The notes: a model not told the origin generated them from the sequence alone. A stretch of DNA of 64,000 nt from Caldilineaceae bacterium (GCA_965207495.1 OZ242287.1:2780880-2844879); one strand, 5' to 3'; positions 32,633 through 39,720 are shown, numbered from the stretch's first letter. Numbers and translations are program-made.

Positions 32633-34405
32633 CTAGATCCCAACCGTAGCCACCTCACCATCCCCGGCAGCAATCGCGACCTCAGCGTCGTCCTCATCGG
32701 CCGCACACAACTTATTCAATGCCTGCAGATAAGCCTTCGTGCTCGCTACGATGATATCCGTGTCCACTCCTCGGCCACTGAACAACCGCCGCCGTGTGCG
32801 CCCCTGCGCAGTCCTGCTATGACCGCGGCTCTCTGGCGCCTCGATACGCACCGTCACGTCGCCGTTGGCGTCGATCCCCTCAGTCACCGCCTGCACCAGA
32901 AACTCGGTCAGCTCATTCGGTTGCTGTACGACTTTGTCTATGCAGGTGTAGACCGCGTCAACCGGACCTGAGCCAAAGCTCACCTCTGTGATCTCTTCGC
33001 CGCTCTCGTTATTGCGCAGCGTTGCCACCGCCGTAGGCATCATGTTGGTTCCACACTGCACCTGTACGCCCAACAGCTCCCAGATTTCGACCGGCTGATA
33101 TAGCTCATCGGCCACGAGCGCTTCGATATCGGCGTCGGTGACCGTTTTCTTCTTATCAGCCAGATCCTTGAAACGAACAAAGACCTCGTGCAGATTCTCC
33201 TTGTCGAAGTGATAACCCATATCCTGCAGACGCACACTAAGCGCATGCCGCCCCGAATGCTTACCCAGAACCAATCGGCTCTGGTGCAGCCCGATGGTAT
33301 CGGCATCCATGATCTCGTACGTGCGCTTGTTCTTCAGCATGCCGTCCTGGTGAATGCCGGCCTCATGCGCAAAGGCGTTTGTCCCGACGATCGCCTTATT
33401 GGGCTGGATGACCATACCGGTGTATCGGCTGACCATGTCGCTGCTGCGGTGGATCTCCTGGCTGCGTATGTTGGTGCGCAGGTCGAAAACAGACTGGCGT
33501 GTGTACAGCGCCATGACCGTCTCTTCCAAGCTCGTATTGCCGGCACGCTCGCCAATTCCGTTGATAGTGACCTCGACCTGACGGGCGCCGTTCTGCACAC
33601 CCGACAAAGTGTTGGCTGTCGCCAACCCCAGGTCGTTGTGGCAATGTACGCTGAAGATAACGTCCTTGCCCCCTTCGACATTCTCACGCAAGTACCTGAT
33701 CAGCTCGCCAAACTCCTCCGGCGTCGTATAGCCGACCGTATCCGGAATATTCAGCGTCGTCGCCCCGGCCTGGATCGCAACGCTACACACCTTGACCAGG
33801 AACTCCGGGTCGCTGCGTCCCGCGTCCTCCGGACTGAACTCCACGTTGTCGCAGAGACTGCGGGCATACTGCACCATGTCGCCTACAGTTTCGAGGATTT
33901 CGTCGGGCGACATGCGCAGCTTGTGCTGCATGTGAATATCGCTGGTGGCGAGAAAAGTATGGATGCGCGGACGCACTGCGCCCTGCACGGCTTCCCAGGC
34001 CTTGTCGATGTCGTTCTTGTTGGCCCTCGCCAGCCCCGCAATGATTGGCGGCCCCGTTACATTTCCGTCATCGTCCTTCCGAGGTGTACAACCCACCGTT
34101 TCCGCGATGCGCTTAACTGCCGCCAGGTCGCCGGGCGAGGCCGCCGGAAAACCAGCCTCCATAATATCGATCCCCAGGCGTCCCAGCTGGCGGGCGATCT
34201 CAAGCTTCTCCTGCTCGTTTAGCGTCGCGCCCGGCGACTGTTCTCCATCGCGCAGCGTAGTGTCGAAAACGAGAATGGTATTTCCATGGGCAACCTCTTT
34301 CGCCCACTCGTCGACGTCGGCCAAACGGAACTGTTCAACATCGATCGGCGAGACATCGTCTTCGGGTGTCTCATCCAGTTGTTGCGCATCAATTGTGTTG
34401 GTCAT
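32633..34405 (-). CDS. leuA: 2-isopropylmalate synthase
   Basis: 590 aa. [29 protein letters not shown], and a C-terminal LeuA allosteric domain. Has an N-terminal extension of about 45 aa. Confidence 0.9.
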
Positions 34406-34584
34406 GGCAAGATGCCTCCGGAGGTGATTCTGTTCAAGAGATGACAGTTTCGTTCCCCCTTGCTCAAAGCAGTGGGGAACATCGTGAACGCGGAGCAGGA
34501 CTCAGCGCACAACATAAGGTCACTAAGGCCGTCATCCATGTTCACCACCCCCTTTCCAAATAGTTCAGACCTGGCGCCGAAAGC

Positions 34585-35586
34585 CTAGATTTCCTTGGCG
34601 TCCAGGAAGGTCATCATCCTGCGCAACTCTTTGCCTACATTCTCCAACTGCTGATTCTGCTCGTTGCGGCGTCGCTCGTAGTAGACCTTGCCGCCGCCGT
34701 GGTACTCGTCCATCCACTCTTCGGCAAATGCGCCCGACTGGACGTCCGCCAGAATCTTTCTCATGGATTCCTTTGTTTCGTCGGTGATAATACTCTGGCC
34801 GCTCTTGTAATCGCCCCATTCGGCCGTATCACTGATGCTGTAACGCATGTAATTGAGCCCGCCTTCGTACATCAGATCGACGATCAACTTCAGTTCGTGC
34901 AGGCACTCGAAGTAGGCGATCTCGGGCTGGTAGCCAGCATCGACCAACACTTCGAAACCGGCCTTGATCAGTTCGCTGACCCCGCCGCAGAGGACCGTCT
35001 GCTCCCCGAACAAGTCGGTCTCCGTCTCCTCGGCAAAAGTCGTCTCCAGCACGCCTGCGCGTGCCGAACCAATCGCCTTGGCGTACGCCAGCGCGTTGGC
35101 CAGGGCATCTCCCGAGGCGTCCTGATGAATGGCGACCAGGGCAGGGACGCCTGACCCTTCGACAAATACCTCTCGCACTCGGTGGCCGGGCGCCTTGGGC
35201 GCTACCATCGACACGTCCACCTCATCAGGCGCAACAATGAAGCCATAGCGCACGTTGAAACCGTGCGCGAACATTAAGGTGTTGCCGGCCTCGAGGTTGG
35301 GCTGAATCTGCTCCTCATATACCTTGCCTTGGATCGGGTCGGGAATGACGACCATGATAATATCGGCCTCTCGGGCCGCGTCGGCAACGCTTACGACCCG
35401 CAAACCGTCGGCTTCGGCCTTGGCCTTGCTGCGGCTGCCTTCGTGCAACCCAATGCGAACGTCCTGGCCGCTGTCCTTCATGTTCAGTGCATGGGCATGG
35501 CCCTGGCTGCCGTAGCCGATCACGGCGATCTTCTTGCCTTCCAACCGCGCCGTGTCAGCGTCATTCTCGTAATAAATCGTTGCCAC
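34585..35586 (-). CDS. ilvC: ketol-acid reductoisomerase (class I)
   Basis: 333 aa. [11 protein letters not shown].., Rossmann [12 protein letters not shown], and conserved ..[11 protein letters not shown].. Confidence 0.95.
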
Positions 35587-35736
35587 TTTCCCCTCCGAGG
35601 ATCTGATTTCCTGGTCTTTGAATATTTCTCAACGGTTCACTGTCGCCGCGTCGGAAGTTGGGCGGCCCAATCGAGTCATGGTCACCTCGTCCGCACAAGC
35701 AACAGCCATTTACGCTTCAAACAAGCGTTTTGTCTA

Positions 35737-36294
35737 CTACTTTTCGGCGTGAGAGCTGCCGTTAAGGCTTGCCGCGGCCTTGAATATCGACGTCGCCGGC
35801 TTATTCCGCTTGGGCCGTTCATCCCCGCGACACAATGCAACCCGGCCCGTCCGCACCATCTCCTCAATGCCGAAGGGCCGCAGCAGCTCGATCAACGAAT
35901 CGACCTTGTCTTCCGTGCCAACCGCCTGCACGACCAGATTCTCAGCGTTGACATCCACGATCTGAGCCCGGTAAATCTCGGCGCACTGCATGATCTCCCC
36001 GCGAGTCGCCGGCGTCGTCCGCACCCGGATCAGCGCCAGCTCTCGCAAGATGGCCAGCCGGTTTGTGATGTCCTCCACCGCGGTGACGTCTACGACTTTG
36101 CGCAGCTGTTTGACAACCTGGTCGGCCACGCGCTCATCGCCGTCCACCACAAATGTCATGCGGCTGATTCCAGGCGTTTCGCTATGGCTGACCTGGAGGC
36201 TGTCGATGTTGAAGTTGCGCCTGCGCAGCATTCCGGACACCCGATTCAGCACACCGGGCTTATCGCGCATCCAGGCGACAAGTGTATATTGCAT
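35737..36294 (-). CDS. ilvN: acetolactate synthase small (regulatory) subunit
   Basis: ORF 35737..36303 (GTG). ATG at 36294 preferred (AGGTGA 6 nt upstream). ACT-domain start ..[28 protein letters not shown]. Confidence 0.9.
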
Positions 36295-36384
36295 TGGTCT
36301 CACCTCTGGCGATTCTCTTTCTCAGTTTTCAGAGGCGCCAGCCAACCGGCTGCCTCTATGCCGCCGTCGTTCTTACCCAAAAAA

Positions 36385-38175
36385 TTACCAGCTCGGCTGC
36401 ACGCCGCTATAGCCCTGAACATGACCTGGCTTCGGCCGCCGAATCAGTTCATCCACGGCCGCGCCCGGCGCAACCATCGGATAGACATTTACTTCCTCTT
36501 TTACCTGGAAATCGACCAGGTACGGCCCATCGGTCGCATGCGCCTGCTCCAAAACCGAAACAACCTCGCTCGGATGGCGGACCACGGCACCGGGAATATC
36601 GTATGCCTCCGCTAGCTTGACGTAGTCCGGCGAAAGAATCGGTGTGCCGACATAACGCTTATCGTAGAAAATCTGCTGCCACTGCCGGACCATGCCAAGG
36701 AATCCGTTATTGATAATCGCGATCTTTACCGGCATTTTCTCTTGCTGGATGGTGGCCAGCTCCTGCAACGTCATCTGGAACCCGCCGTCGCCCGCCACGC
36801 ACCAGACCAGCGCCTCCGGATCTGACATCTGCGCGCCCAGGGCCGCCGGCAAAGCATATCCCATTGTGCCGAGGCCGCCGCTCGTCAACAGCATCCCGGC
36901 CTGTTCGTGTATATAGTACTGGCTTTCCCACATCTGATGCTGGCCGACGTCAGTGACAACAATGACGCGCTTTTCAGTCCTCTCTGTGGCATGCCAGAGT
37001 TGACGTATGACATAGGGCGGAATCAGCTCTTCGACCTCATATTGAATGATGTCAGCCTCGTCCGTCTCCGAACGCCATTCGCTCAGGGTATCTACCCATT
37101 CCTGGTGACGCCTGTCCTTGACCTGAGGAAGAAAGGCCGGAAGCGTTTCCGCCAGATCGCCCACAACGGCCACGTCGGGAACGATATTCTTACCGACCTC
37201 AGCCCGGTCAAGTTCGAAATGGATGATCTTGGCATCGGCCGCGAATCGATCGAGTCGCCCCGTAATTCTGTCGTCAAAGCGCATGCCCATTGCGATCAGC
37301 ACATCGCAGGACTGTACAGCCCGATTCGCGAATGCCTCACCGTGCATGCCGCCCATTCCCAGGCTGAGCGGATGTGTCTCAGGAATGTTGCCCGTGCCCA
37401 GCAGAGTCGTTACCACCGGAATACCCGCCTTCTCGACCAGCTGCAGCAGCTCGTCGCTGGTATTCGAAAGGTGGACGCCATGACCGGCCAGAATCAATGG
37501 CCGCTCTGATTCGTTAAGCAGGTCGGCCGCCTCCTGCACCGCTTCCGGACTGTATTCCGGCCACGGCTCGAAGCCGGGAAGATTGATCTCAAAGTCATAG
37601 CGAAAAGTGCCGGTCTCAATCTGAACGTCTTTGCAGACATCGACGAGAACAACACCCGGCCGACCTTCGCGGGCGATATAGAACGCCTCTTTCATGACCA
37701 GCGGCAATTCGGCTATATCGGTCACAAGATAGTTGTGTTTGCAGACCGGCTGCGTCACGCCCACGACGTCCGACTCCTGAAACGCGTCGGTACCCAGCAG
37801 GCTGGTCGGCACCTGGCCCGTGATTGCGACAACCGGAACGCTGTCCATCTGGGCCGTCGCCAGTCCGGTGACCAAATTCGTCGCACCCGGTCCGCTGGTG
37901 ACGATGCAGACGCCTACGTCGCCCGTAGCGCGCGCGAAACCGTCGGCCATATGTGCTGCACACTGCTCATGGCGGACCAGCACGTGATGGATTCGGCCGT
38001 CTGCCTCGTACTCCGCCAAGGCGTCATAAGCGGGCAAGATCGCACCGCCGGGGTGGCCAAACACAGTCCTGACTCCCTCACGCAGCAGGGATTCCCAAAT
38101 CATCTGCGATCCGGTAAATTCCTGGGGCCCCAGATCGTATCCGCTATCTGCCGGTTCTCTTTTGGCTAGCGCCAT
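36385..38175 (-). CDS. ilvB: acetolactate synthase large (catalytic) subunit
   Basis: 596 aa. ThDP enzyme motifs [14 protein letters not shown] and [16 protein letters not shown]...GDGGFQM..NN. Confidence 0.95.
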
Positions 38176-38312
38176 CCGTGTCCTCCTGCAAGCTGGCTCA
38201 ATTACTGGCCGGATCCAATTTCAGACCCAGTGAACAGGTAGCATTCTGTCCAGCTACCACTATCTAAGATGCTCTACACGTCGCCGAAGTTCCCCGATCG
38301 ACTTCCCCACCT

Positions 38313-38342
38313 AAAGAAAAACCCTTCCCGGCTGGGGAAGGG
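38313..38342 (-). terminator. intrinsic terminator in the ilvB leader (candidate attenuator)
   Basis: Minus strand: CCCTTCCC-CAGCC-GGGAAGGG (8-bp stem) followed by TTTTTCTTT. Located about 60 nt after the leader ORF stop and about 138 nt before the ilvB ATG. Confidence 0.7.
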
Positions 38343-38401
38343 TCTGCACTGACCTGAGCAAGAAGTCCGTTACTCTGGACTTCCTTGCCTTCGCCAACCA
38401 A

Positions 38402-38494
38402 TCAAGGCCTGGAGCCGCTTACAAGAAGGGCTACAAGGCCGAGAAGAAGGACCTTAAGGCTAATTAGCAGGTTCAATACAGTTAAACTTCTCAT
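38402..38494 (-). CDS. candidate branched-chain amino acid leader peptide (30 aa)
   Basis: Manual translation, minus strand, ATG 38494..38492 to TGA 38404..38402: MRSLTVLNLLISLKVLLLGLVALLVSGSRP. That is 11 Leu + 4 Val + 1 Ile out of 30, mostly CTT/GTA codons. No clear SD. Too short for the ORF track. Confidence 0.5.
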   Translation of the reverse strand: MRSLTVLNLLISLKVLLLGLVALLVSGSRP

Positions 38495-38545
38495 TTTCAG
38501 CGAGTTGGAACAGTGAATACAGTCGTCGCTCAATATCTCGTCCCT

Positions 38546-38573
38546 ATTATATTCACAATTGTAAGATGTGCAA
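38546..38573 (-). promoter_or_regulatory. sigma70-like promoter for the ilv-leu leader
   Basis: Minus strand TTGCAC (38573..38568) - 16 nt - TATAAT (38551..38546), in a locally AT-rich stretch about 50 nt upstream of the leader ATG. Confidence 0.5.
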
Positions 38574-38802
38574 CTTCCAAATCACGAAAATGCACAGTCA
38601 CCCGAATTGGACCCAAACGTATGCAGGTTGCATGGGCCGCCTGACGGGACGACGACTTCTGTAATCCAGAAATCAAGCTAAGAGTAGGCCGTATTTCGTG
38701 TTGCCTGAGACGCGATTCCTGCTGTGACATAACAGAATGGTCCTACAATGCGTCCAAGGACGAGCCTCGCATTCCCAAATTCCGCCCAGCAAGTGGCGAA
38801 AA

Positions 38803-38832
38803 AAGACACGATTCGCGCGTATGTGCTATAAT
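38803..38832 (+). promoter_or_regulatory. possible extended -10 promoter for the 38881 gene
   Basis: TGCTATAAT (38824-38832), with a weak -35 AAGACA 18 nt upstream. Divergent from the ilv promoter. Confidence 0.35.
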
Positions 38833-38880
38833 GCAGTGCATAACAGTGTGGGCATATAACGAGTGCGGAGAACGATTGGA

Positions 38881-39720
38881 ATGGCAGACCGAATTCTCAT
38901 GCTGGAGCGACTATCAGCTGTCTTCGACGAAGGGCAGGCAGAGGTTCTGGCAGAAGTCATCTACAATTCCTACAACAATCTCGTGCGCCGCGAGGATTTC
39001 AGTGAGCTCAAGGAAATCGTCCGCGATCTAGGAGCTACGCAACAGCGTACTGAGCAGCGCGTTGAGGATTTAGCAGAGGCACAACAGCGTACTGAGCAGC
39101 GCGTTGAGGATTTAGCAGAGGCACAACAACGTACTGAGCAGCGCGTTGAGGACTTGGCCGAGGCGCAACAGCGTACTGAACAGCGCGTTGAGGAACTGGC
39201 CGAGGCGCAACAGCGTACTGAGCAGCGTGTTGGGGATCTGTCAGTGGCGCAGCAGCGGACTGAAACCGCCGTCCAAAGTCTGGCCCGCGAGGTAGGCGGA
39301 CTGAGCAATCGGATCGGCGGCGATCTGGAAGACGTGGCCGCCATCGTAATTGAGGATACGCTGGAGCGAGAATTGGGATGGGAGGTCGAAGAGCTGAGCC
39401 GTGTTTGGCACACGAGGGACGGTGTTGACGAGGAAATCGACGCCTTCGGAAAAGCGCATGACCCATCCCGACCTCAAATCCCTCTTTGGATTGTGGGTGA
39501 AGTGAAGTTCAATCTGACGATGCGAGACGTCGACCGTTTTTCCAAGCTGGTGGAGAGGGCAACCACACACCTGGAAGGCGAAGTCGTTCCGGTCTGCTTC
39601 TGCTACAGGATCCGGCCCGCAGTACAGCAAAATCTGCTTGAAAAGGGTTACCGCCTGGTTCTTTCAAATGGGCGCATGCCACAAGCGGTGAATGAAAATC
39701 ATGCTAACCTTTCGTCATAA
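38881..39720 (+). CDS. coiled-coil repeat protein with C-terminal PD-(D/E)XK nuclease-like motif (DUF3782-like family)
   Basis: ORF 38863..39720. ATG at 38881 preferred. About 5.5 copies of the 14-aa unit [15 protein letters not shown]-terminal ..EEID(193)AFG...WIVGE(213)VK(215)FNL fits a D..ExK restriction-endonuclease-like core (numbering from 38863). Family recalled from memory (often mis-annotated as chordopoxvirus fusion protein). Confidence 0.55.
39037..39267 (+). repeat. 42-bp in-frame tandem repeat (about 5.5 copies)
   Basis: ACGCAACAGCGTACTGAGCAGCGCGTTGAGGATTTAGCAGAG and near-identical successors. Encodes the (A/T)[13 protein letters not shown] heptad-like units. Confidence 0.9.

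Follow-up and report, generated by a model that had tools for sequence, protein, structure and literature searches.

Upstream of the branched-chain amino-acid operon ilvBNC-leuA in a Caldilineaceae bacterium, a stretch of minus-strand DNA holds a promoter-like sequence, a short open reading frame (ORF) rich in leucine, valine and isoleucine (L/V/I) codons, two hairpins and an intrinsic terminator. The stretch spans positions 38,313 to 38,573 of the 64,000-nucleotide (nt) sequence that was analysed as a whole (GCA_965207495.1 OZ242287.1:2780880-2844879; hereafter the window), and ilvB lies just beyond it. The host belongs to the Chloroflexota, is uncultured and apparently sponge-associated, and is known only from metagenome-assembled genomes (MAGs); its genome measures 5.97 Mb with a G+C content of 59%. 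An earlier note on this DNA had listed the minus-strand elements (TTGCAC-16-TATAAT, a 30-codon ORF with 16 of 30 residues Leu, Val or Ile, the hairpins and the terminator), placed ilvB just downstream, and judged the organism "probably not a proteobacterium." The elements prove correct to the base, the ATG of ilvB stands 137 nt past the terminator T-run, and the taxonomy of the host bears out the last remark. We interpret the leader as very probably a ribosome-mediated (leader-peptide) transcription attenuator of ilvBNC-leuA, a reading drawn from sequence, predicted folds and comparison with relatives. The features on which this interpretation depends are as follows.

38546-38573, minus strand: predicted promoter, with a -35 element TTGCAC at 38573-38568, a 16-nt spacer and a -10 element TATAAT at 38551-38546
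38402-38494, minus strand: leader ORF of 30 codons plus TGA, with ATG at 38494 and TGA at 38404-38402, encoding MRSLTVLNLLISLKVLLLGLVALLVSGSRP
38443-38460, minus strand: possible segment 1, GCCUUAAGGUCCUUCUUC, codons 12-18, which in minimum-free-energy folds may pair with 38403-38387 as an anti-antiterminator around P1
38406-38440, minus strand: hairpin P1, in the 3' half of the ORF, GGCCUUGUAGCCCUU-CUUGU-AAGCGGCUCCAGGCC, -16.5 kcal/mol
38388-38399, minus strand: predicted 5' strand of the antiterminator, termed x, GGUUGGCGAAGG, beginning 2 nt past the leader stop codon
38360-38385, minus strand: hairpin P2, AGGAAGUCC-8 nt-GGACUUCUU, 9 base pairs (bp), -12.6 kcal/mol
38351-38354, minus strand: GGUC within the invariant CAGGUCA, which in a constrained fold pairs with GACC at 38344-38341, the base of the terminator 5' arm, in the antiterminator state
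38330-38341, minus strand: predicted 3' strand of the antiterminator, CCUUCCCCAGCC, comprising the distal part of the terminator 5' arm and the whole loop
38313-38345, minus strand: intrinsic terminator, with its stem at 38345-38335/38329-38319, its loop at 38334-38330 and its U-tract UUUUUCUUU at 38321-38313
32633-38175, minus strand: the operon ilvBNC-leuA, which the leader is proposed to control

Sequences and Methods

Homologous leaders were gathered within the genus and beyond it. The genus sample comprises 57 leaders, 36 of them distinct, obtained from 24 congeners found through ilvB (87-96% identity) and from 33 public contigs that matched a pattern derived from the conserved region of the terminator; 32 of these contigs are labelled as Caldilineaceae MAGs and one as "uncultured Chloroflexia," and several of the bin names look sponge-derived. 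At greater distance, ilvB upstream regions were surveyed in 95 genomes across the class of the host, and 55 further upstream regions, from 35 families, were taken from other classes of the same phylum. Leaders were recognized by a detector that required an ORF of 20-70 codons with an L/V/I excess of 5 or more and an end 10-70 nt before an intrinsic terminator, and the reverse complements of the same regions served as the control. The class alignment used for covariation was built with MAFFT from sequence and fitted to no structure. For the influence of ribosome position, only the RNA 3' of the ribosome footprint was folded, in transcripts ending before the 3' arm of the terminator. Minimum-free-energy folds of transcripts cut at this point were too noisy, with long-range pairings, and ensemble probabilities were used instead.

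A Terminator and a Covarying Antiterminator

The terminator consists of 11 pairs with a predicted energy of -17.7 kcal/mol (stem-loop 38345-38319, with TTTTTCTTT at 38321-38313); it is also reported by a terminator scan, and 100% of its cells are paired in the 36 distinct genus leaders. When its 3' arm is blocked in a constrained fold, the window sequence adopts an antiterminator in which x pairs with the terminator 5' arm and loop and P2 forms the tip. This duplex, GGUUGGCGAAGG:CCUUCCCCAGCC, is made up of 6 bp, one mismatch and a further 5 bp. The earlier note had proposed RNA folding to test for mutually exclusive terminator and antiterminator structures, and the fold described here provides such a pair. 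The same note had pointed to complementary CCTT/AAGG words in the spacer. Two of these words, GCGAAGGC and CCCTTCCCC, do take part in the alternative pairing, but the extension of that pairing into the terminator loop, GGUUGG:CCAGCC, had been missed.

Within the genus, the 11 pairs of the antiterminator helix are formed in 99.2% of cells. In six of these pairs the variation is confined to one side, and almost every change leaves a standard pair. The GGUUGG within x is invariant, and the terminator-loop variants that face it (CAACC, CAGCC, CGACC, CAACU, and UAGCC) can all still pair with it. P2, whose core GAAGTCC-8-GGACTTC lies at 38383-38362, is present in all genus leaders and shows compensatory changes in five pairs; as the tip of the antiterminator fold it is compatible with both states. 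Across the class, P2 is not conserved as a hairpin. The GGUC:GACC helix of the constrained fold may also belong to the antiterminator state. Its columns are invariant in the genus and so offer no covariation; formation of this helix in the antiterminator would explain the invariance of CAGGUCA. P1 likewise shows compensatory changes in five of its pairs among the genus leaders, and may be a pause or timing hairpin.

The pairing of x with the terminator extends well beyond the genus. In the class sample, changes in x are matched by changes in the arm and loop of the terminator, as in GUUGGG:CCCAAC, GUCGGG:CCCGAC, GCUGGG:CCCAGC, GUUUGG:CCAAAC, GUUUAGG:CCUAAAC, GUGGGGCGG:CCGCUCCAC, and GGGACGG:CCGUCCC. 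The energy of the x:terminator duplex has a median z of -2.7 relative to shuffles, with 62% of cases below -2, and the duplex of x with its own terminator is more stable than duplexes with foreign ones (-18.9 vs. -15.0 kcal/mol, the observed mean being reached by 0/10,000 permutations). In the class alignment, the seven loop-proximal pairs are formed in 81.7% of cells. Six of the seven show compensatory changes, a number reached by 2/500 shuffles, and compensatory changes occupy 21 cells, a number reached by 0/500 shuffles, and slid controls give far lower values; the relatives are not independent, so such counts are not probabilities, and the pattern is nevertheless plain.

The Leader Open Reading Frame

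The leader ORF is exceptional for its genome. Leu, Val and Ile account for 16 of its 30 residues, compared with 22.3% of residues in the long ORFs of the genome (binomial P = 2e-4), and in a genome-wide scan it ranks first for L/V/I among 289 arrangements of a mini-ORF, a terminator and a gene. Many of its codons are rare (CTT six times, GTA three times, TTA, and CTA): CTT supplies 6 of the 11 Leu codons of the leader vs. 11% genome-wide, GTA supplies 3 of the 4 Val codons vs. 12%, and TTA and CTA, both used here, stand at 2% and 3% in the genome. The CCUUC words required by the RNA folds must account for part of this preference.

The earlier note had also named conservation of the mini-ORF in relatives as a check. 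All 36 distinct genus leaders keep an open, L/V/I-rich frame of 28-46 codons whose ATG stands at a constant distance from the -10 box. Elsewhere in the class, such a frame is kept in many families too. The peptide resembles a single transmembrane helix. Its N-terminal half diverges freely in the genus (MRSLTVLNLLISL…, MSGHFLLDLVPSL…, MTAFSPANTVIGL…, MLIAFVPAVVIVV…) while remaining open and hydrophobic, and its core, GLVALLVSG, is nearly invariant. The stop codon occupies two positions, either just before GGUUGG, as in the 30-codon form of the window, or about 10 codons further on, inside P2.

The promoter belongs to the same conserved unit, as GTTGCA-N17-TATAAT is invariant in all 36 distinct leaders. 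It would place the start of transcription near 38539 and leave a 5' leader of about 45 nt before the ATG. A consensus promoter scan did not list the site at 38546-38573, because its -35 element matches at only 3/6 positions. In other families, the promoter of the homologous leaders reads TTGACA-17-TAGAAT or TATACT.

Distribution Across the Class and Phylum

In the host's class the detector recognized a leader in 38/95 ilvB upstream regions and in 0/95 reverse complements; in other classes of the phylum it recognized one in 8/55 regions (7/35 families) and in 0/55 reverse complements. The peptides differ from one family to another (e.g., MTFTLSFLLIVVIIELLVLILGQEPLPVGRQVTRR and MFVPLVLLNLVLVVLLSLLVIIIGKEPARVGKAASTGW), and the layout is constant: a run of L/V/I codons, a GCUCCU…AGGAGC hairpin inside the ORF, x, and the terminator. 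More than 70 divergent leaders retain an L/V/I-rich open frame. The hairpin inside the ORF occupies the position of P1 and has a median z of -2.2, which suggests a pause or timing element. Across the class (e.g., at the loci L108:155-260, L076:183-282, and L077:230-334) the 5' arm of this GCUCCU…AGGAGC(C) hairpin consists of Leu codons; the 3' arm resembles a Shine-Dalgarno sequence and encodes a recurrent "EP" (…EPxxVG…).

Individual loci of the survey depart from this layout. A complete genome from the host's own family (L066; G168:C1:2415202-2415991) has no leader before ilvB. What the upstream DNA encodes there resembles, by eye, the C terminus of a TnpB-like transposon protein, which would fit an insertion in place of the attenuator. 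In the family represented by L025:1090-1500 (G031), about 400 nt separate the leader from ilvB, and directly before the gene stands another hairpin that resembles a terminator (…CTTCGCAGCAAGGGTTTTTTT). In a genome of another class (L204:626-727; G244), the 700 nt before ilvB contain an S-adenosylmethionine (SAM) riboswitch that exceeds its threshold with a score of 66 bits; since it is encoded on the other strand from ilvB, it presumably controls a divergent gene.

Ribosome Position and the Proposed Mechanism

If the ribosome is the sensor, its position on the ORF should decide the fate of x. In the RNA left free 3' of a ribosome stalled at an internal codon, the ensemble probability of the antiterminator is typically 0.7-0.9 in most of the 36 leaders. 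With the ribosome at the stop codon (30-codon form) or past about codon 29 (long forms), it is 0 in 36/36 leaders. The end of the ORF is placed to match, since it always falls beside or beyond x. In 22/23 well-supported class members the ORF reads into x, and for that reason the short ORF of the window looks derived. In the window itself, the last Leu-Leu-Val codons (38428-38420) lie at least 20 nt upstream of x and the stop codon only 2 nt upstream. All computable predictions of ribosome-mediated attenuation by a branched-chain-rich leader, as the earlier note had envisaged it, thus hold at the level of sequence and folds, and the geometry of the ORF end fits.

In the proposed mechanism, transcription would start near 38539 and a ribosome would translate the 30-codon leader while RNA polymerase advances. 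When Leu, Val and Ile tRNAs are charged and plentiful, the ribosome would arrive at the UGA (38404-38402), where its footprint would lie over GGUUGGCG, the first part of x; in most relatives, the ORF would instead carry the ribosome right across x. Masking of x would let the terminator hairpin (38345-38319) form, and transcription would end at the U-tract with a leader RNA of about 225 nt as its product. When charged Leu, Val or Ile tRNAs are scarce, the ribosome would stall at the corresponding codons, most of them rare and the last of them at least 23 nt before x, and leave x free to pair with the emerging 5' arm and loop of the terminator, with P2 as the tip. The antiterminator, once formed, would exclude the terminator and polymerase would enter ilvB. 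A 1:2 anti-antiterminator of the classical kind, in which segment 1 would pair with a stretch that contains x, may also form in the window, but shows no covariation.

Several results weigh against this interpretation. On the segment from x to the U-tract the terminator state has an energy of -39.5 kcal/mol and the antiterminator state -33.1 kcal/mol, so that the terminator is more stable by about 6 kcal/mol. In nearly all 36 leaders, full-length equilibrium folds favour the terminator at nearly every ribosome position, and at equilibrium it also wins with no ribosome present. Such folds with a ribosome mask consequently do not discriminate between positions, and antitermination, if it occurs, must be kinetic. 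The trp attenuator of Escherichia coli is likewise described as a kinetic choice. In transcripts carrying no ribosome, the probability of the antiterminator ranges from 0.00 to 0.92 among relatives. The 1:2 pairing (38460-38443/38403-38387) is formed in 83% of genus cells, with covariation no higher than that of shuffles. No Shine-Dalgarno sequence precedes the leader ORF in this genus (GAAAAUG); some homologous leaders in other families do carry one before the start codon. A crude genome scan that did recover the ilvB leader as its positive control found no other leader-peptide attenuator for Trp, His, Phe or Thr, and trpE and valS sit behind T-box-like matches instead. Finally, translation of the ORF, stalling of the ribosome and the kinetic choice are all deductions from sequence and folds.

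Alternative Explanations

The terminator/antiterminator pair is the best-supported part of the leader, and it could in principle serve an RNA switch independent of translation, in which a ligand, a tRNA or a protein selects the state and the ORF is incidental. The missing Shine-Dalgarno sequence of the genus ORF would then need no explanation, the nucleotide conservation of P1 and CAGGUCA, which exceeds what coding requires, would be expected, and T-boxes are in use in the same genome. We nevertheless regard such a switch as very unlikely. No Rfam family reaches threshold here, the T-box and the ppGpp riboswitches included, and the class has no conserved aptamer-like multi-helix core, as only P1, x and the terminator are common to it. 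An incidental ORF also fits poorly with an L/V/I-rich frame that is kept in more than 70 divergent leaders and has no counterpart in the reverse-complement control, with a frame end that is always beside or beyond x, and with the enrichment of rare Leu and Val codons. It is slightly harder still to credit the element as a separate small gene, encoding a hydrophobic membrane peptide or a small RNA, that has a promoter and terminator to itself while ilvB uses another promoter in the 137-nt spacer. The helix-like peptide with its nearly invariant GLVALLVSG core, the strength of the terminator and the conserved words in the spacer before ilvB all have a place in such a scheme. The core, however, coincides with hairpin P1, and its invariance is thus better attributed to constraint on the RNA. 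Moreover, the element precedes ilvB in many families and several classes although the sequence of the peptide is not conserved, a covarying antiterminator would serve no purpose in a stand-alone gene, and the consensus promoter scan gives no promoter-like site on the minus strand within 38176-38312.

A coding origin on the opposite strand can be dismissed almost entirely. A plus-strand frame stays open over about 48 codons and resembles the tail of a protein (…LDFLAFANQSRPGAAYKKGYKAEKKDLKAN and a stop), so that the conserved block might be taken for the remnant of a plus-strand coding sequence. The frame has no ATG, GTG or TTG start, as the earlier note had remarked of this strand, and it was rejected on account of frame-breaking indels of 1, 2 and 5 nt in relatives; in addition, the U-tract of the terminator serves the minus strand only, and the hairpins covary as RNA. 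A role beyond attenuation is a separate matter, and one that we hold to be unlikely: by analogy, either the leader RNA released by termination (about 225 nt) or the hydrophobic peptide it encodes might have a second function in trans. Such a role could explain why CAGGUCA and the GLVALLVSG core are invariant beyond the apparent need of the switch. For the trp attenuator of Sinorhizobium, trans roles have been reported for the rnTrpL RNA and the peTrpL peptide (PMC7968998, PMC7298713). In a milder version of this unlikely reading, the family would work through occlusion of the antiterminator by the ribosome itself, no 1:2 anti-antiterminator would be involved, and leaders that are not translated would read through.

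Relation to Known Systems

The attenuators of E. coli and Salmonella offer the closest model for the proposed mechanism. Their ilvBN (ivbL), ilvGMEDA (ilvL) and leu (leuL) operons are likewise preceded by a Leu/Val/Ile-rich ORF of about 30 codons, their antiterminator and terminator are likewise mutually exclusive, the position of the ribosome decides between them, and several amino acids are sensed. Rare Leu codons are used in leuL as well. The differences from the Chloroflexota leaders are nonetheless considerable. We find no sequence relationship, with Rfam leader models below threshold and no NCBIfam peptide family matched; the Chloroflexota antiterminator pairs with the loop of the terminator as well as its 5' arm; the ORF of most Chloroflexota relatives reads through x; a 1:2 anti-antiterminator is unsupported; and the host is a member of the Chloroflexota.

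Searches of family libraries bear this out. Rfam 15 returned nothing at threshold for the window (the best matches, to DsrA at 16 bits and SmY at 14 bits, being at chance level). Among 20 class-level leaders, Leu_leader (RF00512) scored 22.5 bits against a gathering score of 50, and Thr_leader (RF00506) scored 23.8 bits against a gathering score of 55. Phe_leader (RF01859) matches 7/20 of these leaders weakly and in the right place, at 26-36 bits against a gathering score of 55, and all six matches with a recorded locus orientation are on the strand of the leader. This likeness reflects a similar overall layout; the amino acid is different, and the window itself has no match and is not a member. 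The NCBIfam leader-peptide families (IvbL, IlvL, LeuL, and others) were compared with the window peptide and those of two relatives, and no family was matched at E ≤10; a fourth peptide, from another relative, gave one chance-level match, to an unrelated family.

Leader peptides before ilvB are known outside the Proteobacteria. The ilvBNC attenuator of Corynebacterium (the ilvB-II motif) is reported to have a branched-chain-rich upstream ORF (PMC10272879, PMC11857589). Its three hairpins are interpreted as a terminator, an antiterminator and an anti-antiterminator, of which the first two overlap (PMC11857589). Corynebacterium belongs to another phylum, the likeness is one of description only, and genetic evidence exists there whereas ours is confined to sequence. 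Narunsky et al. argue that attenuation by upstream ORFs is common before ilvB (PMC10272879), and in the same paper the ilvB-OMG and Leptospira ilvB RNA motifs are re-read as leaders with a branched-chain-rich upstream ORF (PMC10272879). Neither motif matches the window or the 20 class-level leaders in Rfam 15 (E ≤10 or 1).

T-box leaders, known in the Chloroflexi for trpE and ileS (PMC2494555), are also terminator/antiterminator switches before amino-acid genes. They differ in sensing uncharged tRNA, where here the sensor would be a translating ribosome. No T-box (RF00230) match was found before ilvB (37900-39000). Elsewhere in the genome of the host there are four T-box-like matches, one of them above the gathering score (G000:C1:3586367-3586572, 4335940-4336312, 2915325-2915589, and 2549641-2549918); judged from the downstream ORFs, they precede serS, trpE, the gene for an AlaX-like editing protein, and valS. 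No paper connecting leader-peptide attenuation with Chloroflexi, Chloroflexota or Anaerolineae emerged from full-text literature searches, and for the Chloroflexota only T-boxes and riboswitches are discussed in the searchable literature.

The Operon and Its Surroundings

The four genes named in the earlier note as ilvB, ilvN, ilvC and leuA are confirmed in their identities, each by an NCBIfam equivalog model above its curated cut-off. Together with the spacer that separates them from the terminator, they are arranged as follows.

38176-38312, minus strand: terminator-to-ilvB spacer of 137 nt, with the ilvB Shine-Dalgarno sequence CAGGAGG at its 3' end
38175-36385, minus strand: ilvB, with its ATG at 38175
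36303-35737, minus strand: ilvN
35586-34585, minus strand: ilvC
34405-32633, minus strand: leuA

The spacer contains words conserved in the genus (GGGAACAAC, GCAUCUUAG, and GAGCCAG), and RNAalifold gives no consensus structure for it. On the plus strand, a promoter-like site of the extended -10 type (38803-38832; AAGACA-18-TATAAT, 10/12 matches) points away from the ilv leader and toward a coiled-coil gene at 38863-39720, so that the two units are divergent.

Implications

The kind of regulator proposed here is well known, its mechanism is textbook material, and the gain is incremental. What would be added is the Chloroflexota as a further phylum in which branched-chain amino-acid synthesis is under ribosome-mediated attenuation, through an attenuator family that appears undescribed in the literature. 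The family is present in about 40% of the sampled ilvB upstream regions of the class. This breadth, together with clear covariation, means that it could be described as an RNA family and used to annotate genomes that are mostly uncultured. In the host itself, T-box-like leaders precede trpE and valS, a leader peptide is proposed for ilvBNC-leuA, and two kinds of sensor for tRNA charging would thus operate side by side.

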